Shown in pieces: positions 12,077 to 62,225 of a stretch of 64,000 nt of DNA. The translations under genes and the position numbers were made by a program. The stretch is from NCBI GenBank assembly GCA_965263035.1, contig OZ253580.1, positions 5,600,001 through 5,664,000 of the forward strand, given 5' to 3'. The notes beneath the pieces were generated by a model. It searched no databases. It was given only the letters and a program-made list of their open reading frames with translations, and had not been told where the DNA came from. The first letter of the stretch is position 1; the number at the start of each line of letters is the position of its first letter. The stretch is from Acidobacteriota bacterium (GTDB lineage Bacteria; Acidobacteriota; UBA6911; RPQK01; JAJDTT01).

Positions 12077-13575
12077 GCGGCTGCCTCCGGGGAGGTGGCC
12101 AGGCGGGCAACCGTTTCTTCCTGGAGGTCTGCCTGGGACAGCTCCCCGCTGATCCGCCCTTCGTGCATCACCAGGACCCGCCGCGAGAGTCTCAGGATCT
12201 CCTCCATCTCGCTGCTGGCGAAGAGGATGGCGGTCCCTTCCTCGGAGAGCGCTTCGATCAGGTGATAGATCTCCTGTTTGGAGCCGACGTCGATGCCGCG
12301 AGTGGGCTCGTCCAGGAGCAGGATCTTCGGTTTCAGGGAAAGCCACTTGGCCAGAACCACCTTCTGCTGGTTTCCGCCCGAGAGGTGCTCGGTGGTGGCT
12401 TCGGCGCCGGGCGTTCGGATTTCCAGTCGGGCGATCATCCGGGCCGCTTGGCGCCGGTGAAGACGGCGGTTGATGAAGCCGCCCCGGAGCCGATGGTGTC
12501 TCAGGGAGGCCAGTGAGATGTTCTCCTCCACACCCATTCGGAGGATCAGACCCTGTTGTTTCCGGTCCTCGGGGACCAGGGCGATGCCGTTCCGGATCCC
12601 CTCGATGGGGTTGGAGATCCGGGCCGGTGTGCCGTCGATCCAAATCCTGCCGCCCAAGGCCGGCTCGGTGCCGAAGAGGGCGCCCAGCAGCGCGCTGCGG
12701 CCCGATCCCAGCAGCCCGGCCATGCCGACGATCTCCCCGGCTCCCACCTCCAGGTCGAGACGGTGCCCCGGATGTTCCCGAGTCCGCAGGTCCCGGACCT
12801 CCAGGCGGACCGGGCCCTGCTGATCTGGGACCTGACCGTAATAGCTGGAGATGTCCCGGCCCACCATGAGCCGCACCATGCGGTCGTGATCGATCTCATC
12901 TTTGGCCAACTCGCCGGCGTTGGAGCCGTCGCGCAGCACCAGGACCCGGTCGGCCAACTCCTTGACCTCGCCCAGCCGGTGAGAGATGTAGATCACCGCC
13001 GCACCTTCGGCTCGAAGCTTCCGAACGTTCCGAAACAGGTTCCGAGTCTCGCCTTGGGAGAGGCTCGACGTGGGCTCGTCCATGATCAGGACCCGGGACC
13101 GGGCCGCCAGCGCCCGCGCGATCTCCACCAGCTGCCGCTGGCCCATGGAGAGTCGGGCGACTTTGGTCGCCGGAGAGCAGTCGAGCCCGATCCGTTCCAG
13201 AATCGGCTGGGCCGCCTGCTCCAGCCGGCGATGGTTGAGGAACCCGAAGCGATGGGGCTCCCGGCCCAGGAAAATGTTGGCCGTCACGTCCAGGTTGTCC
13301 GAAAGGTTCAGTTCCTGGTGGATGAGGTTCACCCCGAGACCGGCAGCGGTCTGGACGGACCCCATTTGGACGGAGGATCCATCCATGAGGATCTGTCCCG
13401 AGTCCTGGACTTCCTCGCCCGCCAGGATCTTGACCAGGGTGCTCTTGCCGGCCCCGTTTTCGCCCACCAGAGCCAGGACCTCGCCGCCGTGAACCTGGAG
13501 ATCCGCACGTTCCAGAGCCACGGCCCCCGGAAATCGTTTGCTGATCTTCCGGGCTTCGAGGACCGGTGCCGCCAT
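12073..13575 (-). CDS. sugar ABC transporter ATP-binding protein (RbsA-like)
   Basis: GENGAGKST, LSGGNQQK and DEPTRGIDVG motifs. Confidence 0.95.
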   Translation of the reverse strand: MAAPVLEARKISKRFPGAVALERADLQVHGGEVLALVGENGAGKSTLVKILAGEEVQDSGQILMDGSSVQMGSVQTAAGLGVNLIHQELNLSDNLDVTANIFLGREPHRFGFLNHRRLEQAAQPILERIGLDCSPATKVARLSMGQRQLVEIARALAARSRVLIMDEPTSSLSQGETRNLFRNVRKLRAEGAAVIYISHRLGEVKELADRVLVLRDGSNAGELAKDEIDHDRMVRLMVGRDISSYYGQVPDQQGPVRLEVRDLRTREHPGHRLDLEVGAGEIVGMAGLLGSGRSALLGALFGTEPALGGRIWIDGTPARISNPIEGIRNGIALVPEDRKQQGLILRMGVEENISLASLRHHRLRGGFINRRLHRRQAARMIARLEIRTPGAEATTEHLSGGNQQKVVLAKWLSLKPKILLLDEPTRGIDVGSKQEIYHLIEALSEEGTAILFASSEMEEILRLSRRVLVMHEGRISGELSQADLQEETVARLATSPEAAA

Positions 13576-16185: not shown

Positions 16186-18987
16186 ATGAGAAGACCGTTC
16201 GGTTTCCTGCTACCGGTTGCATTTCTGGCAGCAGGACTGACTGGGGCAGGAGCGGAGAAGGCGTGGGTGACCCACAGCACCTTCCAGGATTTTTCGAGGG
16301 GGCGTCTGGGCGATAGCGGGGTCAACCTCTACGCGACCCGCTCCGGGACGCTCGAGATGATCCGCCGCTGGGACCTGAACAACGATGGTTACCTGGACAT
16401 CCTGTTGGGACAGGACCACGACGTCCTGGAAAATGCCCATATCCTGGTCTACTGGGGTCGAGCCGGGGGACCCGAGTCCATCCTGCCGGATCTTCCGGAC
16501 CACCAACCCCTGGCCCGCCTGCTGCGGCAGATCCGCCTCCGGGATAGGGGGGTGACGAGGCTTCCCAGCGACGGGGGCGGCCGCTCTCTGGTGGTGGACC
16601 TGAACCAGGATCACTATCCCGAGATCGTCTTCTGCAACTTCATCCACAACTACTCGGAGAACATGTCGGCCGTCATCTACTGGGGTGGCGCCGACGGTTA
16701 CCAGGCCGAGCATCGGACCGAGCTGCCCACCCTGCTGGCGGGGGGATTGGCGGCGGGGGACTTCAACGGCGACGGGTTCATTGACCTGGCCTTCTCGAAT
16801 CGGGGCATCGAAGGCGGCGAGCGTTTCGGTTTCGACCGGCACCTGGAGTCGTACGTCTACTGGAACGGTCCTCGGGGATTCGATACCTCCCGCCGCAGCG
16901 TCGTGGAGACCGTCAGTGCGGCCGACTGCGCGGCGGGAGACGTGGACGGAGACGGCTACGCGGATCTGGTGTACGTCAACAACAATTCCCGGCACCAGAG
17001 TGTCTATCTGTACCGGGGAGGTCCCGGCGGACTCAGTGCCGAGCGCGACGAGTGGAAGGGGGGCGACCCCGTTGGAGCCCATCTGGCGGACGTGGACCAG
17101 GACGGCCATCCGGATCTGGTCCTGAACCACGCGGACGACCGGGTGGTGCTTCATCGCGGATCCGGGCGGGGGCCGACCCGGGAGGCATGGATCGAACTGC
17201 CCACCGAGGGAGCCAAGCAGAGCCGGACGGGTGACCTGAACCGGGACGGGTTCCCCGAGCTGGTGCTGCCCAACAGTCGCGGTTCCGCTTCCTATGTCTA
17301 TTGGAACGGCCGGGAGGGGTTCTCGCCGGAGCGACGGAGCGAGTTGCCCACGCTGGCGGCCACGGATGCGGTACTGGCCGACTACGACGGGGACGGTTGG
17401 GTGGATCTGGTTTTCGCCAACGAGTACGGCGGGGAGACCTACGACGTCAACTCCTATCTCTACTGGAACGGGCCTCAGGGGTTCGATGCGGCGCACCGGA
17501 AGCAACTCCAGGGCTTCGGTCCCGTGAGCGCCGGTGGAGGCGATCTGAATCGGGACGGACACGCCGATCTGGTGCTGATCAACCGCTCCAGCGGCACCCA
17601 CGGGTCCATCGATTCCCTCATCTACTGGGGGAATCCGCGGCACTACTACTCGACGGCCTCCGTGACCGAGATTCCGGGAACGGGCGGCCTCATGACCAAA
17701 GCCGACCTGAACCAGGACGGCTGGGTGGATCTGGTCTTTCCCGCCGGGCGGGTCTACTGGGGAGATCCGGCCGGCTACAGCACCGACCGTCGGGAGGAAC
17801 TGGAGACAGGCGGCTATTCGGTCACCACGGCGGATCTGAATCGGGACGGACACCTGGATCTGGTGGTGGCCGTCGGCTCGGCGGACGCGACCACGCCCGA
17901 TCCGACGGGTCTCATTCGTTGGGGCGGGGAGGGAGGTTTCCGGTCCGGCCGTGAAACCCGTTTGCCACTCCGTTGCCGGCGCCCCATGGCGAGCTCACTG
18001 GCCGATTTCAACCGGGACGGATTCCTGGATCTGATCTTCACCGACGTGGACTCCCCGAACACGGAGATCTTCTGGGGAGATGAATCCGGGACCTACGATC
18101 CGGAGCGGCGCCTCCATCTGAAGGTCCACTCGGCCTCCACCGCCGAGATCGCCGACCTGAATGCCGACGGCTGGCTCGACCTGATCCTGGGAGCCGTCTA
18201 CGACCCGGAGCGGTTCGGCCGGCCCATGCGCAAGGCCACGCTGCTGTGGGGAAGCCGGGACGGATTCTCGGAAAAAAGGTCGCTGGAGTTGGAGGCCTTT
18301 GAATCGGAAGAGCAATCGGTGGCTGACCTGAATCGGGACGGCTATCTGGACATCGTGATGACCAACTACCATGGGTACACGACCCGCTCTCTGCCCGTCC
18401 TCATCTACTGGGGCGGTCCGGACGGGAGCTACAGCGAGTCCCGCCGGTCCACTCTTCCCGGCGAGTCCACCCTGGCGCTCACCGTGGCCGATCTGAACCA
18501 GGATCGCTGGATGGATCTGATCGTGGTCAACCACGTGGAGCGGGGAGACCATGCCGTGGGCACCAACATCTTCTGGGGCGGGGAGGAGGGGTATTCCTAC
18601 TCCCGCCGCGACTGGATCCAGAGTTTCGGTCCCCACTTCAGCATCAGCCACGACGTGGGCAACATCTACCACCGGCGCCTGGAGGAGGAGTACACGTCGG
18701 AGCCGTTGGAGATCGCCGATGGAGTGCGCCCCGGCCGTCTGGAGTGGGAAGCCCGAACTCCCCATGGAACCGCGGTCCGCTTCCAGATCCGGAGCGCCGT
18801 CTCGACCGCGAAGCTGGAGCAGGCCGGCTGGACGGGTCCCGGGGGCCGGGAAGGGTACTTTGACGACCCGGGGTCAGAGATTCGGGTCGGTGAAGGGGAC
18901 CGATGGCTCCAGTACCGGGTCCTTCTGACGTCGCCCGACGGGGGGAGCACTCCGGTTCTGGAAGAGGTCCGGTTCCTGGCCGAGTAG
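16186..18987 (+). CDS. secreted FG-GAP/VCBS repeat protein
   Basis: Signal peptide MRRPFGFLLPVAFLAAG; GGAGG RBS; more than 10 DLNxDG repeats. Confidence 0.9.
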   Translation: MRRPFGFLLPVAFLAAGLTGAGAEKAWVTHSTFQDFSRGRLGDSGVNLYATRSGTLEMIRRWDLNNDGYLDILLGQDHDVLENAHILVYWGRAGGPESILPDLPDHQPLARLLRQIRLRDRGVTRLPSDGGGRSLVVDLNQDHYPEIVFCNFIHNYSENMSAVIYWGGADGYQAEHRTELPTLLAGGLAAGDFNGDGFIDLAFSNRGIEGGERFGFDRHLESYVYWNGPRGFDTSRRSVVETVSAADCAAGDVDGDGYADLVYVNNNSRHQSVYLYRGGPGGLSAERDEWKGGDPVGAHLADVDQDGHPDLVLNHADDRVVLHRGSGRGPTREAWIELPTEGAKQSRTGDLNRDGFPELVLPNSRGSASYVYWNGREGFSPERRSELPTLAATDAVLADYDGDGWVDLVFANEYGGETYDVNSYLYWNGPQGFDAAHRKQLQGFGPVSAGGGDLNRDGHADLVLINRSSGTHGSIDSLIYWGNPRHYYSTASVTEIPGTGGLMTKADLNQDGWVDLVFPAGRVYWGDPAGYSTDRREELETGGYSVTTADLNRDGHLDLVVAVGSADATTPDPTGLIRWGGEGGFRSGRETRLPLRCRRPMASSLADFNRDGFLDLIFTDVDSPNTEIFWGDESGTYDPERRLHLKVHSASTAEIADLNADGWLDLILGAVYDPERFGRPMRKATLLWGSRDGFSEKRSLELEAFESEEQSVADLNRDGYLDIVMTNYHGYTTRSLPVLIYWGGPDGSYSESRRSTLPGESTLALTVADLNQDRWMDLIVVNHVERGDHAVGTNIFWGGEEGYSYSRRDWIQSFGPHFSISHDVGNIYHRRLEEEYTSEPLEIADGVRPGRLEWEARTPHGTAVRFQIRSAVSTAKLEQAGWTGPGGREGYFDDPGSEIRVGEGDRWLQYRVLLTSPDGGSTPVLEEVRFLAE

Positions 18988-37125: not shown

Positions 37126-38571
37126 TTAGAAGTTCAGTTGAAACCGGGTGACCACGGCGTGGGTGCCGCCGACCTCGTACAAGTCGCCGAAGACATAGTT
37201 GAACATGATCCGGGCGACCGGATTCAGATACCAGTTCACAGCCGCCGTCAGGTTGGTGAGACGGCCTCCCTGAATGGCTCTGTCCGTCAGGTCCAGAGTG
37301 GAATACCGGAGCGCCATCTCCCAGGCTCCCGTCCCCTCTCCCGGCGCAAAATTTTTCCGGGGCCGCACGCGGTCGAAGGAACCCGAGGAAGCCTTGTAGT
37401 TCCGCTGCTCTCCGGTCAGGAAGACGCTGGCATAGATATAGAAGCCACCGAAAGCCGGGTCTCCGGCGATCTGGGAATGGGCCGCCGAGTAGGTGTACTC
37501 GGACTGAACCGAAAAGGGCCCGCTCACAACGGCGCCTTCCAAGGCCAGCATCTGAACCTGATCCGAGGGAAATGAGGCCGTGTCCAGATAGCGGTCCGTG
37601 AGATGGAGTTCCGGGCGCTGCCGCCAGCGCAGGGCGCCGTCGCTGGGTCTTCTGAGGCTGTAGCTGACACCCAGATGGGCCAATCTGTCCTTCTGCTCGC
37701 TGAGGGCCGGCACGCCGGTCAGACGAAAGGTGCCGGCGACGCCGTCTCCCAGACTGGTTCCACCGTTGTCCGTATCCCGGAAGATGCCCGCAGCCCAGGT
37801 CAACCGCTGGTCGAACTGGGAGTTGTAGACGGTCAGCCCCACGTTTCTACTGGACGAGAAGACGTTGGGCAGGGAGCGTTCCACGAAGGTCATATAGTTG
37901 CTGCTGGTGAGTTCCTCCAGGCTGTAGGGTTCCTTGTAGTGACCGACCTTGACGTTCCCGACGCCGGGAAGTGCCTTGAGTCCGATGAAGACATCCTTCA
38001 GCGCCGTTGAGCCCCCAGCAAAGTCGAATTGGCTTTTGAAGCTCAGGTTCCCGAACAGGTCGCCCGACATGTAAAGACGCGTCCTGCGGAATTCACTGCC
38101 GCTGGTCTGATCTCCGATCGCGTCCCTCACGGATTGATCCTCGCTGATCCACATCCAGTCGGCCTGGATACGTCCGCCGATCTTGAGACTCACCCGCTTG
38201 TCCGGTGTCTCCAGCCGGACTCCATCCTTCCAATAGGGTCGCAGGGAGTTGTCGTCTTGAGTTCGGTCTGTAGATTCCTTCTTCCCGGGCTCATTGTGCT
38301 GCTCCTGTTGGCCTTTTCCCTTGCAGCCCGTGGTGAAAGTCCCGCGAGCACCGAGACCGTTCCTGCGCCCGCCGGACAAGGCGCGATGAGGGAGCATACG
38401 GGGAGTATGTGACCGAGTCGCAACGCAGTCCGCCGGGATGCAGGGACGGTCGAATGCCGTGACGACTTTTGCCACGGGCTGCTGGGCACTGGATGAGGTC
38501 TGGGCTGTCAGGGAAACGCCTCCCGCTTGCAGCAGCAGCGTGCTGAGGATGAGCAGTCCCGTACGCTTCAC
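37126..38571 (-). CDS. phosphate-selective porin (OprO/OprP family) with an in-frame MITE insertion
   Basis: [16 protein letters not shown] and VNWYLNP motifs; C-terminal Phe; GTG start with signal peptide; upstream of pstS. Confidence 0.88.
38324..38481 (-). mobile_element. MITE copy 2 (158 bp) inside the porin CDS
   Basis: Reverse complement of copies 1 and 3 with two 1-bp deletions. Confidence 0.85.
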
Positions 38572-41265: not shown

Positions 41266-41667
41266 ATGCCAAAGGCCAAGCTCGGCCAGTTCGATGATCT
41301 CGTCCGGCTCTCGAACGAGCCGCTTGAACCCATCGTGGAACGCCTGCGCGCAGTGATCCTCGAAATTCACCCGGATGCCTGCGAAGTGGTCCGCCTCGGC
41401 GACCGGGCCGCCACTTACGGTTGCGGGCCCAGAAAAATGATCGACGGGTACGCATACATCCTGCCCTACAAATCTTGGGTCAATCTCGGCTTCTACAGGG
41501 GTACGAGCCTGCCGGATCCTGAGGAATTGCTGGAAGGGACCGGCGCCAGGATGCGTCACGTGAAGATGCGGACGGTTGAGGACGTAGAACGGCCCGGCGT
41601 TCGAGGGCTGATCAGGGAGGCCTGCGGCGAGCGCAAGGCTGCGCTTGGACTCGCAGCCCGTGGCTAA
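41266..41667 (+). CDS. DUF1801/YdhG-like protein
   Basis: VNLGFYRG and LLEGTGARMRHVK motifs; stop codon lies inside MITE copy 3. Confidence 0.85.
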   Translation: MPKAKLGQFDDLVRLSNEPLEPIVERLRAVILEIHPDACEVVRLGDRAATYGCGPRKMIDGYAYILPYKSWVNLGFYRGTSLPDPEELLEGTGARMRHVKMRTVEDVERPGVRGLIREACGERKAALGLAARG

Positions 41668-41813
41668 AGTCGTCACGGCATTCGACCGTCCCTGCATCGT
41701 GCGCGGACTGCGTTGCTATCGGCTCACATACTCCCGGTATGCTCCCTCCGTTGCGCCTGGTCCGGCGGGCGCAGGAACGGTCTCGGTGCTCGCGGGACTT
41801 TCACCACGGACTG
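41654..41813 (+). mobile_element. MITE copy 3 (160 bp)
   Basis: Near-identical to copy 1. Confidence 0.85.
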
Positions 41814-41814
41814 C

Positions 41815-43497
41815 TCAGTCCAGCGGAAAGGTAACGGCCCCATCCGAGGGTGAGGAAACCGTACGGGCGTACTTGGCCAAGACGCCGGTCTTGGAACGAG
41901 GCCTGGAGGGTTTCCAGTTCCGGAGGCGGCGCCGGATCTCCTCGTCGCTCAACTCCACGTTCATCACGCGTTCCTCGATGTCCAGCTTGATGATGTCGCC
42001 ATCCTGCAAGGCGGCCAACGGTCCGCCGACGGCGGCTTCGGGAGCCACGTGCCCCACCACGAAACCCCGAGTGGCGCCCGAAAAACGCCCGTCCGTGATG
42101 AGAGCCACCTTGTCTCCCAATCCGGATCCCTGGACCGCTCCGGTGACTGCCAGCAGCTCTCGCATGCCCGGTCCACCCACGGGGCCCTCGTTGCGGATGA
42201 CGATGACGTCTCCCGGCTTGATCTGACCTTGCTTGATGGCGGCGAACGCCGTCTCCTCCCGGTCGAAGACCCGGGCGGGACCGGTGTGACCGTCCCGATC
42301 GACACCGGAGATTTTCAGCACGCACCCGTCGGGGGCCAGGTTTCCCCGCAAGATGATGAGGCCGCCGGTCTTCTTGACGGGATCGGATACGGGCCGGATG
42401 ACCTCTTGTCCCTCCGGAGCCTGACGGCGGGTCAGCTCCTGGGCCAGGGTCCTGCCGGTGACGGTGGGGAGCTCACCGTCGATGAGCCCCGCTTCCAGCA
42501 ACAGGCGGCCGACGTAGGTCATACCGCCGGCCTGGTGCATGTCGGGGGCGGTAAAGCGCCCCGCCGGCTTCAGGTCGGCCAGGACCGGAGTCTTGCGCGA
42601 GATCAGGTCGAAGTCGTCGATGTCCAGAGGAATGTCGGATTCCCGAGCGATGGCCAACAGATGGAGCACCACGTTGGTGGAGCCGGCCGTGGCCATGGCC
42701 CCCGTGATGGCATTGAGGATGGCCCGCCGGCTCAGGATGTCCCGGGGCCGGAGTCCCTGTTCCAGGAGCTGCATCACCAGCCGTCCGCATTCCAGGGCCG
42801 CCTCTTCCTTCTTGGGGTCCACCGCCGGGATTCCATTGAAGCCCATGGGGGAGATGCCCAACATCTCGAACGCGGTCGACATCGTGTTGGCGGTGAACTG
42901 GCCTCCGCACGCCCCCGCGCCGGGACAGGCGTAGTTCTCGATGCCCCTGAGTTCTTCCCGGTCGATTCGACCCGCATTGTAGGCCCCGATGGCCTCGTAG
43001 GCGTCCTGAACCGTGAGCTTACGCCCGTTGTATTCCCCCGGCATGATGGAACCGCTGTAGAGGATCAGACTGGGGATGTTGAGCCGCGACAGCGCCATGG
43101 CGGCGGCCGGGTTCGTCTTGTCGCATCCCGTGATGGCGACGAGGCCGTCGAACAGGTGTCCCCGGCAGACCAGCTCGATGGAGTCGGCGATGACCTCCCG
43201 GCTGACCAGCGACGCCTTCATGCCTTCGGTCCCCATGGCGATCCCGTCCGTCACCGAGATGCTGTTGAACTCCAGGGGAGTTCCGCCGGCGGCTCGAACC
43301 CCTTCCTTGACCTTTGCCGCCAGTCTGCGGTGGTTGAAGTTGCAGGGCGTGACCTCGATCCAGCAGTGGGAGACACCGATGAGAGGTTTGGCCAGGTCCT
43401 GGTCGGTGAAACCGATGGCCTTGAAGAAGGATCGAGCTCCCGCCCGGTCGGGCCCGTCCAGAAGAGTTCGGCTCTGGTGTCTCATATCGAATGGCAT
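41815..43497 (-). CDS. ilvD: dihydroxy-acid dehydratase
   Basis: PCN, GCDKT, GACGGQFTANTM and TDGRFSG motifs. Confidence 0.95.
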   Translation of the reverse strand: MPFDMRHQSRTLLDGPDRAGARSFFKAIGFTDQDLAKPLIGVSHCWIEVTPCNFNHRRLAAKVKEGVRAAGGTPLEFNSISVTDGIAMGTEGMKASLVSREVIADSIELVCRGHLFDGLVAITGCDKTNPAAAMALSRLNIPSLILYSGSIMPGEYNGRKLTVQDAYEAIGAYNAGRIDREELRGIENYACPGAGACGGQFTANTMSTAFEMLGISPMGFNGIPAVDPKKEEAALECGRLVMQLLEQGLRPRDILSRRAILNAITGAMATAGSTNVVLHLLAIARESDIPLDIDDFDLISRKTPVLADLKPAGRFTAPDMHQAGGMTYVGRLLLEAGLIDGELPTVTGRTLAQELTRRQAPEGQEVIRPVSDPVKKTGGLIILRGNLAPDGCVLKISGVDRDGHTGPARVFDREETAFAAIKQGQIKPGDVIVIRNEGPVGGPGMRELLAVTGAVQGSGLGDKVALITDGRFSGATRGFVVGHVAPEAAVGGPLAALQDGDIIKLDIEERVMNVELSDEEIRRRLRNWKPSRPRSKTGVLAKYARTVSSPSDGAVTFPLD

Positions 43498-43515
43498 GGT
43501 CCGGAAATTGTCTCA

Positions 43516-43549
43516 TATCTCACGATCGTCCGAGTTCTTGCGAAAGATA
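43516..43549. other. candidate 13-8-13 recombination site upstream of recombinase 1
   Basis: TATCTCACGATCG-TCCGAGTT-CTTGCGAAAGATA; homologous site at 47289-47322. Confidence 0.6.
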
Positions 43550-43567
43550 CAGATAGAGGAACCACAC

Positions 43568-44560
43568 ATGGACGACAAATTCCTAGAGGACCTGGAACGG
43601 ACAACACTGGCCGAAAATGGACAACTGGACTGGCGATTGGAGCTTCACGGCATGGCCAAGAACACCCGCATCAACTACATGAGTAGGCTCGGCTTTTTCG
43701 ACAAGTACATGAGAAAACAGTGGCCCGGATACCCGCCGGAAGCTCCCAGCGACAAAATGTTGGCCCATTTTTTGATCATGGAATTCATCCGGGGTCTCGC
43801 CGCCTCCGGGCTAAAGGCTTCCGTGAACGCCGTGAACTGGCGAGCCACTGTTCTGGACCATGTCAAGCCCGCCGGAGCACGGACCCGGCGGAACCTGAAG
43901 AGACTTCGGGCATTATCCGGCCGGGAAGGAAGAGGACGTGGACAGGCTCCGTCTCTGACGTTAGATCAGGTCCACAACCTGATCCAGACGACGATCGAGG
44001 CTCGCGATTCCTGGTCTTTCCGGGATGCCGCGCTGATTTCGACCTGCTACTACGGAATGCTCAGAATCTCGGAAGCTGTGTCCCTGGATCGGGACGACGT
44101 GACATTCCTCGATGACGGGAGGGCTCGACTGTTCATACGCCAACGCAAAAACGATCAAGAGGCCAAGGGCTCCAAGATCACCTTGCCCGAAGACGGAGCC
44201 GAACTGCTCCGCGCCTGGCTCGACTCCGTAGGGATCACGTCCGGTCCCCTGTTCCGGGGCGTCCGGCCTGCTCGGTCCGGGCCGAACATCGGAGACTCTA
44301 ACTTGAGCAGAGAACAGGCCCAAAGGATCGTCCAAGGCCGCGCCAAGGACGCCAAGCTGGGACATATCACCACGCACTCGCTGAGACGGAGCCACGCCAG
44401 ACACTTGAAGGAAGCCGGCGCATCCCTGGTCGAAATCCAGCACGCTGGAGGCTGGCGGTCTACGGGAATGCCCGCGCTGTATTCCGGGCATGACGAAGCA
44501 CAAGGCGACGTGATGCAAAAGTTTTACCCGGTCAGGCCCAGGCTCCGGCGGGTGAAGTAG
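43568..44560 (+). CDS. Cre-like tyrosine recombinase 1
   Basis: Catalytic R-K-H-R-W-Y in GMLRISE, RKND, HSLRR, GGW and PALY. Confidence 0.9.
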   Translation: MDDKFLEDLERTTLAENGQLDWRLELHGMAKNTRINYMSRLGFFDKYMRKQWPGYPPEAPSDKMLAHFLIMEFIRGLAASGLKASVNAVNWRATVLDHVKPAGARTRRNLKRLRALSGREGRGRGQAPSLTLDQVHNLIQTTIEARDSWSFRDAALISTCYYGMLRISEAVSLDRDDVTFLDDGRARLFIRQRKNDQEAKGSKITLPEDGAELLRAWLDSVGITSGPLFRGVRPARSGPNIGDSNLSREQAQRIVQGRAKDAKLGHITTHSLRRSHARHLKEAGASLVEIQHAGGWRSTGMPALYSGHDEAQGDVMQKFYPVRPRLRRVK

Positions 44561-44840
44561 CCGCCATTCGGCCCAGGCTGGCCGCTCTCGGAAAAGGAAG
44601 GTAAAGGTAGGGCGAAGGCCGCTCAGGAGCCGCCTGGGCCTCCTCACTCCCCCTCCGGCGGCTGCTATCGCCGTGCTCCCGATTCAGAGCAGATCGCTGA
44701 TCCTGACACACTTTCCAACATCTCAAAAGGTTTATTGCCCGGCCTGCTGATTCCTCGTTCTCTTCGAGCCATGTCAACTGTACTTCCAGTGATAGCTCCA
44801 TCTGTACGCTCTCCTGAGTCGATTTCCGCCGCGTAAGGGA

Positions 44841-46925
44841 TCAGGACGGACTCCGCCCCCATTCGAGGCCTTGGTGCCGATACCCCGCAAGGTACTTGGC
44901 CACTAGGTCCAGGACGTCATCGAAATCCCTCGGTTGAGTGGATTTCAGCTTTTCGATCCTGCCTCGCAAAATATCCTCATCGCCATACACGTCAACCAAC
45001 TCATCCCACTCCATACGAAAAGAACGGTGAACGATCCTTCCGGCGGCCTTCCGTGTCAACGTACGCGCTGACTCAAGCAGAGCCCGGGTCACGCGGGGCG
45101 AATCCGGGACTTCGAGAGGCGGTTCATCGGGACCAGACTCTTGTTTTATAGAGACGAACGTCCGGAGGAGACATTTTTCCTTGGCCAGAGATTCGGCTGG
45201 CGCAGATCGAACTTCCTCTCGCCAGATTCTTTCGAATTGCTGTGCCGCGCGCTCCGAGACGAGCTCGTGTCCTATGTTTTTTTGGTGTCCGACCAACATG
45301 ATCAGTTCCCACTTGGCCGACAACTGTTCGATCTGGGACAGGATGCATCGAACAGCATCCTCTATTCGGTCAGGGCTTTCGAGCTTTCGCACCAGCCGAT
45401 AGACTACTCTGCGGACGGCGTGGCGAGGTTCGAGGTCGAAAAACCCTCGCTGGAGATCAGGCATCTCGGGCAGGAGATTGAGGAGTACGATGCTTCCTGG
45501 TACGACGTGCTCCGGGCTGAACTGATCCTCGTACACTTCAAGGCCGGCAATGACATCCTGGCGCCTGTCAGCGGGCAAGATTCGCAGGTAATTGTCGAAG
45601 GCTTCGCGGTCCGCCATATGGCCCCATGCTTGTTCCGCTGCGGTAGATGCCTGGGAACCTTTATTGGGGACTCGTTCCAAGTACAGACGCATAAAATCTT
45701 CATCCGCCACGCGTCTCTCCTGAAGCCACGCGTCTTTAAAATCAGCGCCGTGGTTGAGGCCGCCAACATGCTGCTGGGCTGCGGGGAACAAGTGGAAGAT
45801 GAGTTGTCGGGCGACCCCTTTGTGGTCCGGTGCCGCCGTCTCGATCAGTTCGTTGATCTGATTTTCTCGGGACGATGGATCTTCGAGAGCACTCCTGGTC
45901 GAGGTCGTGGTGAGGCTGGGTATCGATTTGTGCAAGGCAGAAAACACACCCGGGAGAGACATGCGAATGGCTTCGAGGGCGAGAACATCCACCAGGTTGA
46001 CTCGGCCGTTGAGGGCTTGCACAGTACCGCGAATTGCAATGGCATAGCGACGAACATGCCTGATGTTTCTTATAGGGGGCCGGACGACGTCGTGAAACAC
46101 GTCAGGCCAGCGTTCCTCGTCGAATGGACCGGCATTTTCTATCCCCGAAAGCGCGCCGTCGATCGCGTGGGTAATCTGGCTGATCATCACCTCTTCCGGA
46201 ATCTCGGGGAGATCGATATCCCACTGTAGAATTTTCTCAAGATAGTCTCGTCCGCGGATCCCCGTCGATTCAGTCAGTGCCTTTTCCACCCGCTCCCGGT
46301 CGAATGCCGTGATGTAGATGACGTTTGGAAAATTCGCAGTCAGCCGGACGAGCTTGAATACCGCTCGGATTTCCGGGGTCGTCAGGCGGTCAATGTCATC
46401 GACGACGACGACGAGTGGCGTCCCGAGAGCAGTAAGGGCCTTCTTGACCTTGTCCCTGCGCTCGGCGATTCCCTCCTTCCTGAGATCGGGTAGATTTACA
46501 AGAAGTTTCATCGCCAGTCTCACCCGGTCAATCCATGGCCCAGCAACAGGTAGCCACCCCCACCTCATCCCGGAGAAGCTCTCTCCATAGCGGGTCAAAC
46601 TCTTACCCAACTCATAAAAACGACGACGGTCACGGCCTCTAAGCTGCGCCGAGAGTTCAACGAAGAAGGACTCGACGAGTTGTTCGGTGCCGCTAAACAT
46701 CCACGGGTTGAAGTCGAGGATCTCGATTCCCGCTTTTTTCAGGTGCGGACGAACCAGATTGACGAAGGACGTTTTTCCTGAACCCCAGGGCCCCAAGGCA
46801 CCGGTCACGAGACCCTCCGAGGCGTCGAGCGAGAGAAGCTGTTCGGAAAACGATTCCGCTAGCTTTGCCCTGCCGAGGACATCCTCCTCGGGATTCCGAA
46901 TAGGGGTATCCATCCTAATTGTCAT
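44841..46925 (-). CDS. KAP family P-loop NTPase
   Basis: DVLGR, GPWGSGKT, FNPW, VVVVDDIDRL and YLEKI motifs. Confidence 0.9.
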   Translation of the reverse strand: MTIRMDTPIRNPEEDVLGRAKLAESFSEQLLSLDASEGLVTGALGPWGSGKTSFVNLVRPHLKKAGIEILDFNPWMFSGTEQLVESFFVELSAQLRGRDRRRFYELGKSLTRYGESFSGMRWGWLPVAGPWIDRVRLAMKLLVNLPDLRKEGIAERRDKVKKALTALGTPLVVVVDDIDRLTTPEIRAVFKLVRLTANFPNVIYITAFDRERVEKALTESTGIRGRDYLEKILQWDIDLPEIPEEVMISQITHAIDGALSGIENAGPFDEERWPDVFHDVVRPPIRNIRHVRRYAIAIRGTVQALNGRVNLVDVLALEAIRMSLPGVFSALHKSIPSLTTTSTRSALEDPSSRENQINELIETAAPDHKGVARQLIFHLFPAAQQHVGGLNHGADFKDAWLQERRVADEDFMRLYLERVPNKGSQASTAAEQAWGHMADREAFDNYLRILPADRRQDVIAGLEVYEDQFSPEHVVPGSIVLLNLLPEMPDLQRGFFDLEPRHAVRRVVYRLVRKLESPDRIEDAVRCILSQIEQLSAKWELIMLVGHQKNIGHELVSERAAQQFERIWREEVRSAPAESLAKEKCLLRTFVSIKQESGPDEPPLEVPDSPRVTRALLESARTLTRKAAGRIVHRSFRMEWDELVDVYGDEDILRGRIEKLKSTQPRDFDDVLDLVAKYLAGYRHQGLEWGRSPS

Positions 46926-46950
46926 GGTCCTTTAACCACCACCTCGCGGG

Positions 46951-47063
46951 CCGGGGGGATGTCGTCGGCCGGCGGACCCGGTCATCGACGAGGCAATGTC
47001 AAACTCGTTGACTCCTTCCGGATCCGCCGCCCCATGCGGCGATCGCCGGCGACCTCCCTCCGG
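46951..47063 (+). other. long imperfect hairpin with three stacked stems
   Basis: Pairs CCGGGGGGATGTCGTCGGC/GCCGGCGACCTCCCTCCGG, GGCGGACCCGG/CCGGATCCGCC and TCGACGAG/CTCGTTGA. Confidence 0.6.
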
Positions 47064-47288
47064 ATGTTCGGATTTTATCACGCCCTCCTCCGCTTCTCGG
47101 AGAAACGCCGCCTTCTTCCGAACGATCCCCATCTCTTTGCGAGCGCCCCCTCTTCTCGCAAAAAATCCCTCCTCTCCTTGGAAATCGTCACCCGGATAAG
47201 ATGCTTTACGGACAATAATTCGGTGCCGGTGCTTGAGCGGTCACGCTCGGCAGCTCTCACCCTTGAGACCACAACTTCCGCGCAAATT

Positions 47289-47322
47289 CATCTATCGATC
47301 GTGTTCGTTCTTGCGAAAGAGA
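47289..47322. other. candidate 13-8-13 recombination site upstream of recombinase 2
   Basis: CATCTATCGATCG-TGTTCGTT-CTTGCGAAAGAGA; same distance to the ATG as site 1. Confidence 0.6.
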
Positions 47323-47340
47323 AGAGTAGGAGGTATCAAC

Positions 47341-48339
47341 ATGAGCGGAAGACTAAACCTGGATGATTTGGAACGAACCGTGCTGGCTGGGGACGAGGAC
47401 CGGGACTGGAGGCGGAAGCTGCGAGCCCGGCCAGCGGGGACGCAGAGAGCCTATGGATCACGCCTGCTCCGGTTCGACCGCTGGATGGCCAAACGCTTCG
47501 CCGACGTAGACCCGGAGCGACCCAAAGACCAGCACGTCGCTCTTCACCTGATCCGGGAGTTCAAACGAGGACGAACCGGCGCGGTCCTGCGACTGAGCAC
47601 CACCGCCTTGCGTTGGAGGGCCAACGCGCTGGACCAGCCTTCGCCAATCGGACGCAAGACGCGGGAAACCCTGGATGTGCTGCTCCGGGAATTGGCCCGA
47701 GTCGGACGGACCAAACGTAGCGCTCCCAGCTTGTCCGAATCGGAAATGGACCGGCTGTTCCGGCAAGCCGAATCCGCCGTCGTCCCGTGGGGACTCCGAG
47801 ACGGTGCGCTAATAGCCGCCTGCTTTTACGGGCTGCTCAGGGCCTCCGAAGCCCTGGCCCTCGATGTCCAGGACGTCCGGTTCCAGCTCAACGGGGAAGC
47901 CACGCTCAGAATCCGCCGGAGCAAAACCGACCAGCATGGGGAGGGCCGGAACGTCACCCTGATTCCCGCCGCTGCGGATCGGCTCCGGCGCTGGACCGAC
48001 TTCGTCGAAATCCAGACCGGCCCCGTCTTTCGCTCTATCCACCGGCTGCCCTTCGGGGATTATCAGATTCGCAGCAAGCGCCTGTCCTTCAACACCTTCC
48101 ACGGACTGCTCGCATATCGCGCCAAACAAGCCGGGCTCGGGAGGGTGAGTACGCACACTTTGAGAAGGAGCGGCGCCAGGGCGCTCATGGAGCGGGGTGC
48201 TACCGTAGCCGAGTTCCAGTTGGCCGGAGGCTGGACAAGCGGCTTGATGGCGGTCTACTACGCCTGAAACCCGGAGGCTCAGGGTGCCGTCGTGCGAAAG
48301 TATTTCTCGGGAGCCCCAAAGCTCAAAGCCGTCAAGTAG
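47341..48339 (+). pseudogene. Cre-like tyrosine recombinase 2 with a premature TGA (48265-48267) after the catalytic Tyr
   Basis: LLRASE, SKTD, HTLRR, GGW and VYY motifs; the read-through tail NPEAQGAVVRKYFSGAPKLKAVK aligns with the C-terminus of recombinase 1. Confidence 0.8.
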
Positions 48340-48543
48340 AGTCGCCGTAGGAGCCCCCCAGACGTTTGGAAGGTCCTAGACCTTGGCCGAGGCCCGTCCG
48401 TTGATCTGGGCCGCCCAGGGGCGAGGAAGGGGGCCGGGAAACCCTGTAAGAAACCCGACCCCTGGAGGAACGGCCCTGGCCTGATCGCCAAATCGCCAGA
48501 GCCTATGACGGTTCCGAGTCCAAAACTGGCGGACCGATTGTGG

Positions 48544-49169
48544 CTGGCCCGCCAGGACCGCCGCCTTCTCGACTTCCATGCCGCCGTTGACCAGAGACTG
48601 GAACGCCCGCGCCCTCCCCGTCAGATCGGAGGCAAACAGGGGCGCCAGGTCCAGCGTCACCGGCATCTCCAGCTTGGCCCGGAACTCCGCCTCCAGCCGG
48701 TTGACCAGGGGCTGGAGCGCCGCGTGAGCCCAGTATCGGAAACTCTCCCGCCTTGCGCTCCCGTCGGACCGATCCCCGAGCATGGCCGAGGGGATTCCGC
48801 AAGCCGAAAGTACGGACTGTTTTGCGTCTTCCCGGAGCGTACACAGTGCCTCCGGTGGAGCCGGTCAAGCCTGGACGGTATCCAGTCTTTCTGAGGTGCC
48901 GCATCCCGGCCCTCACCGAAGCCTACCGCCGTCGTCTCCACTAGGGCCAGCCCTCCGGCCAGCGTCTTGAGGTCGGCTTTCATGGGCGCCAGAGGGTCGT
49001 CCGCTTCGTCCTGTTCGGCATGGGGAACGGGGAGCAAGAATCCGGTAGGAGTTGAGGACTCATTTGCTAGCCAACTTTCCAAGGCTTTGTCCAGGGACCC
49101 GGTTTGGTCCGCAACCTCCAGGGGTCCGCAGCCCTTCCACGGGACGCAGGGATCGATGGCCCACCGCAT
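48544..49169 (-). pseudogene. phage portal-like protein remnant (frameshifted, 5'-truncated)
   Basis: ACGIPSAMLG...RESFRYWAHAALQPLVNRLEAEFRAKL resembles an HK97-type portal C-terminus; frame change near 48870. Confidence 0.6.
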
Positions 49170-49476
49170 CTAGGCGGGAGAGCATACCCAGGTTTATTCG
49201 GGCCTTCTTACTGTGGAAAATAGCTCGTCCTAACCGCGCCCTGAATGGACCGCACAACTCACCTACAAACAAGGCTTGGAGCTGTTGGGACTTGTCCCGG
49301 AGAGGGCAATCGGCTACTATTAGATGTTCCTAGGTGAGCCCGCCGAGTGCTTGAACACCCGGCAGGCTCTATGCTCACTCGTCCTGCGTCGGAGGAAGAG
49401 CCAGCCTAATTGGTATTCTACCTGAATCCCTCCGCTGCCTGAATCCGGCGCAGGACAATCTCCTGGAAGACTTGCC

Positions 49477-60870: not shown

Positions 60871-61875
60871 TCAGGCTCCATACCGGAGGCGAGCCACGGC
60901 ACCCCGACCGGCCAGTTGTGCACGGGCATAGTGGCCTGGCATCTGGGGAGACGACCACCGGCCGTCGATCTGCATCTCGACGATCGTGGCCCCATTTGCG
61001 ACGAGACTCTGAGCCGATCCCACCCGGAGGCTGTGGCCAGAAACCCGGCCCTCGATATCGGCGGCGGCGGCGCGGCGTTTCAACATTAGCCGGAGCCCGG
61101 AGACCGAGAGTGGCTGATTCCCGCAGACGTCCCCTCGGCGTACCCGGCGAAACAGGGGCCCGGTGGAGAATCCGGCCCTATCGAGCCAAACTCGGATTCT
61201 TTTCACGGTGCGGGGCCCGAGATATTGCACGGCTCCCTTGCCCTCCGGGTCGGACTTCGAGAATCGGATGGTGAGACGCCCGGAGCCGTCCGGCTCAAAA
61301 ATGACGTCCTCGACCACCAGGGCGCATAGTTCCGAGACCCGGAGCATGGCATCGCTCATAACGGAGATGATCGCGGCGTCTCGCAATCCGGCCAGAGAGT
61401 GATTCCCATTGGCGGCGAGGGCGGCCATAACGTCCGCATCCCTCCATTGAACGCCTTTCACTTGCCCGCGTCCCCGTCCCTTCCCCTTGCGGCGGAGCCC
61501 GGCGAGGACGGCTTGACTTACGGGGCCTACCGGGGACGGCTGGCCGGTGGTCTTGGATTGGAACCGGACGGCGGCCACCAACTGCCCGGCAACAGCGGGC
61601 GATTTCCCCACATCGTGCAAGCTGGTGAGGTATTCGGCAAGCGTGTCATCCGTGAGGGGCTGCCCGTCCAGGTAGTCGTAGAGACGTTGCAGCTGCCCCT
61701 GGTAGGCGGCTCGGGTGTTGGCCGAGATACTGGCAGCCGCCAACTCGCGGGCCCCGGCGCTGATCCGGGCCAGTGGTCCGACTCCGGAAGACATTGAGGG
61801 GGACACTTCGAGGGCGTTCTTATTGGGCGTCGTCGTCTTTTCCTCGGTGACATTGCCAGTAGAATAACTCACCAT
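60871..61875 (-). CDS. Cre-like tyrosine recombinase 4 (start may be 61794)
   Basis: MLRVSE, SKSD, SGHSLRVGSA, GRW and PGHY motifs. Confidence 0.9.
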   Translation of the reverse strand: MVSYSTGNVTEEKTTTPNKNALEVSPSMSSGVGPLARISAGARELAAASISANTRAAYQGQLQRLYDYLDGQPLTDDTLAEYLTSLHDVGKSPAVAGQLVAAVRFQSKTTGQPSPVGPVSQAVLAGLRRKGKGRGRGQVKGVQWRDADVMAALAANGNHSLAGLRDAAIISVMSDAMLRVSELCALVVEDVIFEPDGSGRLTIRFSKSDPEGKGAVQYLGPRTVKRIRVWLDRAGFSTGPLFRRVRRGDVCGNQPLSVSGLRLMLKRRAAAADIEGRVSGHSLRVGSAQSLVANGATIVEMQIDGRWSSPQMPGHYARAQLAGRGAVARLRYGA

Positions 61876-61897
61876 AAGTGTAATTATAGAGAGTTAT
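61864..61897. other. loxP-like site (13-8-13)
   Basis: ATAACTCACCATA-AGTGTAAT-TATAGAGAGTTAT at the 5' end of a Cre-like gene. Confidence 0.8.
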
Positions 61898-62225
61898 TAT
61901 GGGGTCTGTCAAGCGCTTCAAAACATGCTCATCAGGGTTGAGGAACCGGGATGAAGGGAGGATTGCGCAACTATATCCGATGGAAATGAACCAGGAACGG
62001 GGTGCTCCACCCTCCATTTCTGTGCGGCCAATTCAAAAAAAGATGAACTAGCCGCAATAGTGGGAAGCGGCCCCACTCCATGGAACCCTTTTGCCACCTG
62101 ACAACGACGACTCCCAGAGCAAGGTTCGACAAATCGTTGTCCCCGTGCCAAGACCAGGAACCATCCCGCCGGTATACCCCTGCCATCCTGGGTTTCCGGG
62201 GGATTTGATATATCCTGAGTGTTCA

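Follow-up and report, generated by a model that had tools for sequence, protein, structure and literature searches.

The two Cre-type recombinase genes described here, which lie in a 64,000-nucleotide stretch of the contig OZ253580.1 of an Acidobacteriota bacterium (hereafter, the window), are each preceded by a copy of a motif, S, that appears to be a conserved integrase-proximal element of islands mobilised by Cre-type ("simple") tyrosine integrases. S is not the crossover point of the mapped integrations. It is most likely an element that helps to control or assist the integrase, not a site that is cut and rejoined, and we tentatively favour the view that it is an integrase-proximal protein-binding element of attP, acting as an accessory site, an operator, or both.

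The consensus of S is ATCTnnCGATCG-N8-CTTGCGAAAGA. The window holds the copies S1 (43517-43548, plus strand, ATCTCACGATCG-TCCGAGTT-CTTGCGAAAGAT) and S2 (47290-47321, plus strand, ATCTATCGATCG-TGTTCGTT-CTTGCGAAAGAG), which are the sites that a preliminary description had placed at 43516 and 47289, counting them from slightly earlier starts as 13-8-13. The pattern TCTNNCGATCGTNNNNGTTCTTGCGAAAGA has exactly two matches in the window (43518-43547 and 47291-47320, both on the plus strand), for a chance expectation of 0, and was matched in 0/100 dinucleotide shuffles, even with up to three mismatches. The coordinates bear out that AAAGA ends 20 nt ahead of both start codons (at 43547 and 47320, for ATGs at 43568 and 47341), and also that the sites lie in direct orientation around the first recombinase gene and a KAP-family NTPase gene, with S1 18-19 nt from the ilvD start codon (given earlier as 18 bp). 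The conservation extends to TAGAGGA in S1 (43554-43560), which is the ribosome-binding region of the first recombinase gene, and to TAGGAGG in S2 (47327-47333). The idea of conserved arms around a variable spacer holds for S1 and S2, whose central octamers (TCCGAGTT and TGTTCGTT) are identical at 4/8 positions, but is weaker over the nine copies compared, because four of them have a YTTYCGTT-like centre in common and the arms vary too. In the alignment of S1 and S2 the motif is more conserved than the adjoining coding DNA, and the blocks are nearly identical in S1, S2, and S4 despite the 30-42% identity of their integrases. Such comparisons point to a strong constraint on the blocks of S.

The proteins encoded downstream are recombinase A (P0003, 330 aa, 43568-44560, plus strand), which stands at the left end of the island and is likely its integrase, and recombinase B (P0004, 308 aa, 47341-48267, plus strand), 42% identical to A. 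They deserve the name Cre-like that they had been given: PF00589 is their sole Pfam match, and the solved structures with similar sequences (E<=0.01) are Cre or its engineered derivative Tre in 17/17 distinct PDB sequences (best E 3e-10). In phmmer, A aligns over its residues 60-306 to residues 49-306 of Cre and spans the positions of the catalytic residues R173, H289, R292, W315, and Y324 of Cre, with LRISE paired to LRIAE, HSLRRSHAR to HSARVGAAR, and AGGW to AGGW, and with the tyrosine nine residues past the tryptophan in both proteins; the catalytic motifs of A are also present in B. A and B thus appear to be two-domain proteins lacking a separate arm-binding domain, and since they are Cre-type proteins with no extra domain, a contact of the integrase with S would be of the core-binding type. 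The nearest relatives of A from outside are P0008 (48% identical) and P0009 (47% identical). The cargo between S1 and S2 is a KAP-family P-loop NTPase (44841-46925, minus strand; PF07693, E 5e-41), of which a DNA copy, 86% identical, lies at genome positions 5319451-5321628, where tblastn revealed no nearby recombinase homologue. The island also encodes recombinase H (60871-61794, minus strand), a further Cre-like paralogue of another clade, which is not preceded by S. About 155 nt downstream of B there is a conserved GC-rich hairpin-like block of 41 nt (48423-48461, plus strand), which may be part of the module formed by the motif and the integrase; a block that follows the paralogue F shares 88% identity with it.

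The position of S relative to the crossover was established in three islands mapped against empty sites. The first one, of 28.8 kb, is inserted at the start codon (43495-43497) of ilvD, which encodes dihydroxy-acid dehydratase (41815-43497, minus strand), and that codon is the edge of the attachment site. The island covers genome positions 5643498-5672268, i.e., 43498-64000 in the window and the rest beyond it, with its right end at the equivalent of 72268. It is flanked by a 20-bp direct repeat, the att core, whose left copy (TGTCTCATATCGAATGGCAT, 43478-43497) has the complement of the ilvD start codon as its last bases and whose right copy (TGTCTCATGCCGAATGGCAT) lies beyond the window, at positions equivalent to 72269-72288. 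Of the congeners holding ilvD, 7/7 have an empty site here, and in the metagenome run X13 a contig at the depth of ilvD loses its match exactly at 43497. The second island (9.9 kb, genome positions 5348771-5358660) is found in the same genome, and its site is empty in 7/7 congeners examined, a count outside which stands an eighth congener (G001) with a listed match for which no locus was obtained. The third island (9.7 kb) is in the congener G007, with an empty site in G000; like the 9.9-kb island, it resembles a phage satellite. S1 begins 19 nt inside the 20-bp repeat at the left end of the ilvD island, S4 sits 23 nt inside the TTGAAG repeat of the 9.9-kb island, and S5 sits 28 nt inside the 12-bp repeat of the G007 island. 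Hence, the crossover repeat is outside S by 19-28 nt in 3/3 islands. By our own count, the centre-to-centre distance between the core and S varies (about 38, 43, and 51 bp), and S lies 20-52 nt upstream of the integrase start. The islands of the paralogues F and K have cargo with 67-80% DNA identity, together with integrases that are only 33% identical and different variants of S. Their integrase start codons lie 37-52 nt from S, behind a second ribosome-binding site, so that the conservation of TAGRRGG includes cases in which it does not serve for ribosome binding.

The searches for the motif yielded nine related copies, confined to three genomes of one genus. The mismatch scan of the organism's own genome placed S at four sites, solely 5' of Cre-like genes or their remnants, and S is also present in two other species of the genus. 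A scan of 60 relatives allowing two mismatches matched 17 genomes, all at two mismatches and none beside an integrase (the reversed pattern gave seven matches), but missed the genuine S5. For this reason we built a sequence profile, which added four full-length copies over 101 genomes, all within the genus. Other collections yielded no further candidates. The exact pattern CGATCG-N8-CTTGCGAAAGA occurs at no fewer than 120 loci (at least 120) in genome_contigs, which we regard as chance matches because none of the matches listed is within 1.5 kb of a homologue of A or B; with TAG added, the pattern had one match in metagenome_contigs, in a Mu-like prophage with no adjoining integrase; and a degenerate pattern had five matches in IMG/VR, 0 of them adjoining an integrase homologue. 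Since the motif is known from only three genomes of one genus, the power of these comparisons is low. The pairs S6/S7 and S8/S9 have only about 10-22 nt in common upstream of S before they diverge, and S and the integrase gene are inherited together as a module. CGATCG was rejected as a special methylation or restriction word, given a mild observed/expected ratio of only 0.65 and no depletion of GATC. To our knowledge, S does not fit the consensus of IHF, LexA, or sigma-54 sites.

In the explanation that we favour, S works as double-stranded DNA and consists of two short blocks, C[G/A]ATC[G/A] and YTNGNGAAAG, 8 bp apart, and its putative binder, next to the attP core, would be a protein, most simply the integrase itself. 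Within the element, S separates the crossover core from the integrase gene, and all three are inherited together. The far end of 3/3 islands has an outward promoter-like site with a score of 10/12, 17-29 nt from the junction, which is the best or sole match in each scanned stretch (0.3-0.5 expected). In the excised circle, this sigma-70-like promoter would face the integrase gene and read into it through the core and S. A protein sitting on S could then act as an operator limiting the synthesis of the integrase, as an accessory site assembling or orienting the attP synapse, or as both, and integration would part the promoter from the gene. The autoregulatory operators suggested in the preliminary description are compatible with these data and are kept within this explanation. 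S2 and the degenerate S3, both in the 28.8-kb island, would be relics of once separate modules accreted there, not excision partners. Several observations weigh against this reading. First, S does not significantly resemble the att cores of the islands that carry it. Second, its dyad symmetry is weak and unconserved, and its spacing from the core is not fixed. Third, the outward promoter-like sites overlap, on the opposite strand, the promoter-like site of the island's own tRNA-Leu, and their conservation may therefore serve the tRNA.

The arrangement has counterparts in well-known systems. At the attP sites of phages and islands, whose P'-arm and integrase-proximal regions are regulatory, with lambda-type arm sites and an autoregulated integrase, the integrase gene likewise abuts attP and is separated from the core by conserved protein-binding DNA, and integration alters the expression of the integrase by exchanging the DNA upstream of it. 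In lambda-type integrases, the arm sites are recognised by a separate N-terminal domain, which the Cre-type proteins studied here seem to lack. In Tn4430, the order is core, accessory motif, and recombinase gene, which is the layout proposed for S. The TnpI study describes a simple tyrosine recombinase whose internal resolution site has a core adjoined by accessory recombinase-binding motifs (DR1-DR2) that control synapsis and directionality, an arrangement to which we liken that of S (PMC2847244). Tn4430 differs from our case in two respects: the accessory motifs of Tn4430 repeat the core half-site and their binding was shown, whereas S is a putative site with no significant resemblance to the core, and TnpI resolves cointegrates, whereas the islands integrate and excise (PMC2847244).

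A somewhat less probable explanation, which we nevertheless take seriously, makes S a cis-regulatory leader ahead of the integrase gene, read by the host machinery and not by the integrase. S could then be a promoter or the site of a host transcription factor; alternatively, its left block could pair with TAGRRGG and block the translation of read-through transcripts coming from outside the island. Near-identical blocks would be unusual for recombinase-specific recognition when the integrases are 30-42% identical, and a host factor would fit equally well; these integrases all belong to one host genus. The fixed distance of 20 nt to the start codon in A and B and the extension of the conserved block into the ribosome-binding region also suit such a leader, but TAGRRGG is kept in F and K, where the start codon is farther downstream and has its own ribosome-binding site. 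The unrelated clade of H has a conserved leader of its own (CCCC-N4-GGGGAGAAACGGAG) immediately 5' of the ATG, which is in keeping with such a reading. As for the promoter, we detected no sigma-70-like one at S1 or S2, and a sigma-70 promoter within S was rejected. As for the RNA, RNAalifold, given five copies, pairs TAGRRGG with the left block, and S5 by itself folds well, with a z-score of -2.05; yet compensatory double changes occur in 0 of the predicted pairs, no consensus structure is predicted for the nine copies, the single-sequence z-scores of S1, S2, and S4 are positive (+0.7, +0.3, and +0.8), and no Rfam family matches at S. A structured RNA leader was rejected on the lack of covariation and of a nine-copy consensus and on these positive z-scores. 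In IS10 and IS50, the fold-back of read-through mRNA shields the transposase from outside transcription, and here too the ribosome-binding site could be paired with a terminal sequence that precedes the recombinase start; unlike in those elements, a conserved RNA structure is not supported at S.

It is unlikely, in our assessment, that S is a true lox-like site whose arms are asymmetric and whose 8-bp exchange region sets heterospecificity. The core would then serve for entry into the chromosome, and reactions between copies of S would serve to resolve multimers of the excised circle or to exchange integrase modules or cargo between co-resident islands. The likeness to Cre/loxP, Dre/rox, Vika/vox, Nigri/nox, and the YR series is real: the enzymes are Cre-type (here 308-330 aa), and the recombinase gene is adjoined by a conserved site that is about 32 bp long, with 8 bp at its centre. 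This proximity fits the native sites of Cre-type enzymes, usually less than 1 kb from the gene (PMC10250229). The 12-8-12 geometry has a centre that is the least conserved part in some pairs, e.g., S2 and S4 match at 14/17 left-hand, 0/8 central, and 19/23 right-hand positions. S8 is a mosaic, with the left part of S9 (17/17) and a right part close to S2 and S4 (20-21/23; Fisher p = 0.005), and S3 resembles S5 inside the motif yet is 95-97% identical to S6 and S7 downstream. If true, these mosaics and the three S modules of the 28.8-kb island would be suggestive traces of cassette exchange, with the 8-bp centre setting compatibility; such a built-in cassette-exchange system would have two adjacent sites of different function. 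However, the mosaic boundary of S3 is at the right edge of the motif and not in its centre, the discordant pairs (3/36) all involve S8, and S1 and S2 differ at 4/8 central bases.

According to the same survey, Cre-type sites have inverted repeats of 13-15 bp, with at most about two mismatches, around an 8-bp spacer, and loxP-type sites have 13-bp repeats with at most two mismatches and cross over in the spacer (PMC10250229). The arms of S match as inverted repeats at only 7/12 positions in S1, S2, and S4 (a value reached by about 2.2% of random 32-mers of this genome), 4/12 in S3, and 3/12 in S5, so that S falls short of the lox type, and we found no 13-[6-8]-13 palindrome with up to three mismatches in 42500-49300. 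For integration, strand exchange within the spacer is contradicted by 3/3 mapped crossovers, which lie 19, 23, and 28 nt outside S, and the enzymes are, in further contrast to the known Cre-type systems, integrases of chromosomal islands with short att repeats (6-20 bp). No partner site or second half-site was found at the far ends of the islands, and full-site matches of S to the attB or attP of its own island had p = 0.31-0.998 against random windows, which led us to reject the likeness of att cores to S seen by eye; the right arm of S4 has a 10/12 match abutting the crossover in the attB of F, a single suggestive case noted post hoc. Among the joints listed from four metagenome runs, none links S1 to S2, in contigs that cannot show rare excision or S1-S2 deletion forms and leaving out stretches with no cover (e.g., 47321-48524 in X9 and X13). 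The heterospecific lox-type sites flanking an excisable cassette, as first put forward, are therefore unsupported, and the idea does not merit being taken further in that form, whichever protein may bind S.

Finally, it is very improbable that the similarity of S has no function and reflects a recent duplication or gene conversion of the upstream region, or the conserved 3' end of an open reading frame stopping at TAG: one frame is open across S to the conserved TAG in S1-S5 (5/9 copies, with a peptide like S-x-D-R-...-E-R-x-x-stop) and spans 105 codons in S3, but its stop-to-stop length is only 20-43 codons in S1, S2, and S5, it has no ATG, GTG, or TTG start in S2 and an in-frame TGA within the motif in S6 and S7 (both by our own reading), and it has no Pfam match above threshold in S3, on which grounds an upstream frame or leader peptide was rejected, and recent duplication cannot explain the identical blocks because the motif is far better conserved than the coding DNA that flanks it in A and B, and protein identity is only 30-42%; the motif is, moreover, present in two further species of the genus.

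Cre-type recombinases are mostly known as resolvases of plasmids and phages and as tools for engineering, and the main bottleneck is to find the sites that they use in nature. The lineage studied here employs them as integrases of defence islands and of elements resembling phage satellites, and the three islands, with attB, attL, and attR mapped to the base against empty sites, provide enzyme-site pairs that can be tested. S itself is a candidate control element for a class of enzymes thought to lack the control of directionality. Binding of S by the integrase would make this a simple example of a core plus an accessory site among Cre-type systems, and binding by a host factor would point to host control of the mobility of the islands.

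S1 (43517-43548; 12-8-12, ATCTCACGATCG-TCCGAGTT-CTTGCGAAAGAT) and S2 (47290-47321; 12-8-12, ATCTATCGATCG-TGTTCGTT-CTTGCGAAAGAG), two copies of a conserved motif 5' of Cre-like integrase genes, form a real and non-random pair: the 30-nt pattern of the preliminary description has exactly two exact matches in the 64-kb window (43518-43547 and 47291-47320), and none of 100 shuffled controls contained any match, with up to three mismatches permitted. AAAGA does end 20 nt before the ATG in both copies, as had been described. The genes starting there encode recombinases A (43568-44560; ORF of 330 aa) and B (47341-48267; ORF of 308 aa), both matching PF00589 and 42% identical to each other. The label Cre-like is justified, since in the whole PDB all 17 distinct sequences that match A at E<=0.01 are Cre or its derivative Tre (best E 3e-10) and the alignment of A with Cre spans the catalytic Arg, the His-x-x-Arg, the Trp typical of Cre and the Tyr. 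The described surroundings are also present, with A and a KAP-family NTPase gene on the opposite strand in the interval between S1 and S2, and the ilvD start about 19 nt left of S1. Metagenome contigs carry two strain variants: a C>T change at 43537, the first base of the right block of S1 (run X6), and a 1-nt deletion at 47334, in the stretch separating S2 from the start codon of B (runs X6 and X10).

S1 and S2 are better understood as belonging to a set of nine copies of one conserved, integrase-proximal element, and S1 stands at the left end of a composite island of 28.8 kb that is inserted at ilvD. The ilvD locus was found in seven of the eight congeners searched (the eighth, a 670-contig assembly, gave no match), and in these seven the ilvD start codon adjoins a spacer of ~130 bp and then a FAD-binding-domain gene. 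In the present genome this gene lies 28.8 kb from ilvD, which reveals an insertion from 43498 to window-equivalent 72268 (the same numbering extended beyond the window). A 20-bp direct repeat bounds the island on both sides (left TGTCTCATATCGAATGGCAT, right TGTCTCATGCCGAATGGCAT), S1 starts 19 nt inward of the left repeat, and 57 nt separate the right end from a tRNA-Leu(TAA) gene. Inside the island are A, the KAP NTPase, B, a XerC/D-like integrase, a NACHT NTPase, the Cre-like paralogue H, a type I restriction-modification system and IS fragments. In four metagenome runs, the summed contig depth was 60-130 for ilvD in most bins (higher in places) and 1-18 for the island, and in run X13 one contig of ilvD depth ceases to match exactly at 43497; this fits an island carried by only a minority of the population. 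A MITE- or REP-like repeat of ~165 nt with a ~60-nt core (e.g., 38324-38487 and 41654-41813), present in more than 150 copies genome-wide and also in congeners, at 80-99% identity, accounts for a depth spike and for apparent joints that the metagenome contigs show near 41650-41815. The island displaced the native ilvD upstream region right up to the start codon, and transcription of ilvD now has to start inside the left end of the island or arrive by read-through; no promoter-like site for it was found in 43498-43567 on the - strand. The right part of the island (66840-71156 in window numbering: 3' part of hsdR, IS and an integrase remnant) is duplicated at genome positions 2918428-2922791 and 2098416-2100297. 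These duplicates are 95-97% identical and each lies close to another tRNA-Leu(TAA) gene, and the homology ends inside S3, a degenerate copy of the motif lying in opposite orientation 1.1 kb inside the island's right end. S2 and S3 are better described as relics of accreted modules than as partners around a cassette.

A whole-genome scan tolerating mismatches recovered two copies beyond S1 and S2, namely S3 and S4 (ATCTATCGATCG-CCGCGCAA-CTTGCGAAAGAG), the latter 5' of the Cre-like paralogue F, which is 30% identical to A. F and S4 occupy one end of a 9.9-kb insertion, the F island (genome 5348771-5358660; outside the window and partly covered by loci L025, 1-8661, and L218), splitting a sodium:solute symporter gene that is uninterrupted in all seven congeners examined. 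Its repeat is TTGAAG, S4 sits 23 nt inward, and the far end has a tRNA-Leu(TAA) gene at a distance of 67 nt from the junction. Since its cargo consists only of phage head genes (large terminase, portal, capsid, gp10-like connector), with F as the sole recombinase, the F island resembles either a phage satellite that forms capsids or the remnant of a prophage. The K island, of 9.7 kb and flanked by a 12-bp repeat, lies in the congener genome G007 at another chromosomal place, which is empty in the present genome; S5 (TGCCCTCGATCG-TTTTCGTT-TTGGTGAAAGAG) is found 28 nt inside the repeat and 5' of the Cre-like integrase K. The two islands have cargo in common (67-80% DNA identity), whereas both the integrase (K and F are 33% identical) and the S variant differ. 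Judging from these sequences, S and the integrase gene travel together. The three independently mapped islands share one layout: the crossover repeat is followed after 19-28 nt by S, and S after another 20-52 nt by the integrase start. On the other side of the integrase genes, a conserved GC-rich hairpin, GGGGCCGG...CCGGCCCC, occurs ~150 nt 3' of B and of F (48423-48461; genome ~5357276-5357316).

A profile built from the sequences of five S copies and applied to 101 genomes from the class yielded four added full-length copies, all within the genus: two in the present genome (S6 and S7), one in G007 (S8) and one in another congener, G001 (S9). S3, S6 and S7 are each followed 3' by ~30 codons of an integrase-like frame keeping a D-W-R motif and then by an IS5-like insertion, in downstream regions that are mutually 95-97% identical, and S8 is followed, in our own ORF reading, by an IS1380-like transposase. 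The pairs S6/S7 and S8/S9 share only ~10-22 nt 5' of S, which fits a module boundary just outside the motif. Within the genus the copies total nine. Outside it, pattern scans found none beside an integrase: 0 of the 120 matches listed in genome_contigs (which contains at least 120 such loci) had an integrase neighbour, metagenome contigs gave a single, chance match, and in IMG/VR 0 of 5 matches adjoined an integrase. The closest proteins to A outside the genus are 47-48% identical, and the S-bearing integrases form one well-supported group in the family tree, which settles neither its inner branching nor a single origin. The genome (62% G+C) has five tRNA-Leu(TAA) genes of differing sequence (window-equivalent 72126-72212; genome 5348837, 2101850, 2801586 and 2914932), two of them 57-67 nt inside island ends and two others 1.5-3.4 kb from S6 and S7; ARAGORN also reports a tRNA-like gene with a two-base anticodon 'tt' (tRNA-???) at 13131-13216. 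The H clade (L159-L167 and L172 in congeners; compare 61794-61900) is the commonest clade of Cre-like paralogues in the genus and has a conserved leader of its own, GGATG-N-CCCC-N4-GGGGAGAAACGGAG, which includes a small inverted repeat, CCCC/GGGG; it stands just before the ATG in 9 of 11 members and is missing from H itself and L168. At genome ~17215-17260, two tandem direct repeats GGG(A)CCGATCC(G/C)GTG(T/A)TTT end ~22 nt before the ATG of a Cre-like paralogue (17280) and could represent another type of binding motif close to an integrase gene.

What could S do? The nine copies have three short blocks at fixed spacing (C[G/A]ATC[G/A], 8 nt, YTNGNGAAAG, 7 nt, TAGRR), with an A/T run 5' of them, and each of the three mapped islands has, 17-29 nt from its far-end junction, an outward-facing promoter-like site (score 10/12; TGGACT or TGGACC-N16-TATAAT, and TTGATA-N17-CATAAT). 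From the fixed blocks, the travel with the integrase and this outward promoter, we tentatively read S as a putative protein-binding DNA element in the integrase-proximal arm of attP, a proposal to which we give slightly less than even weight. In the excised circle, transcription from the far-end promoter would pass first through the core and then through S before reaching the integrase gene. The simplest binder would be the integrase itself, and the bound protein could 1) limit integrase synthesis from the circle, 2) assist the assembly or orientation of the synapse, or do both. There is a documented precedent in TnpI, a simple tyrosine recombinase with accessory binding motifs adjoining the core (PMC2847244). 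Three observations count against this mechanism: the resemblance of S to the att cores is not significant; the blocks are near-identical even though the integrases are only 30-42% identical, so that binding of S by a host factor would fit equally well; and promoter-like sites of the tRNA gene coincide in part with the outward promoters.

Recombination between copies at S itself, with the present patterns as its traces, seems improbable to us. In its favour, S8 is like S9 on the left side (17/17) and like S2 and S4 on the right (20-21/23; Fisher p = 0.005), S3 resembles S5 inside the motif and S6 and S7 downstream of it, and S2 and S4 share 0 of 8 positions in the centre between flanks identical at 14/17 and 19/23. 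However, among the 36 pairs the three discordant ones each include the same copy, S8; the boundary in S3 falls at the right edge of the motif, not at its centre; and a similar centre is common to four copies.

One reading in the preliminary description took S1 and S2 for heterospecific lox sites around a cassette, and this is not supported. The inverted-repeat arms are weak, matching at 7/12 positions in S1, S2 and S4 (a value reached by ~2.2% of random 32-mers of this genome), 4/12 in S3 and 3/12 in S5. No 13-[6-8]-13 palindrome with up to three mismatches occurs anywhere in 42500-49300; native sites of Cre-type enzymes are identified by such a palindrome criterion in PMC10250229. The mapped crossovers of three islands fall outside S, and no additional half-sites were found at the far ends of the islands. 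The central octamers of S1 and S2 differ at 4 of 8 bases, so recombination between them is not expected under Cre rules. An RNA element finds no better agreement: RNAalifold paired the left block with TAGRRGG in five copies, without compensatory change, and predicted no structure at all in nine, folding of S1, S2 and S4 was no better than that of shuffles, and no Rfam family was found at S. Finally, the frame open through S to the conserved TAG spans only 20-43 codons in S1, S2 and S5 and is interrupted by TGA in S6 and S7 (our own reading of the sequences), and no sigma-70 promoter was detected at S1 or S2.

S is a variant of a known arrangement, in which a core plus adjacent control or accessory DNA lies next to the integrase gene; we did not find this arrangement described for Cre-type enzymes in the literature searched. 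Three att sites are mapped to the base, which makes the system directly testable.
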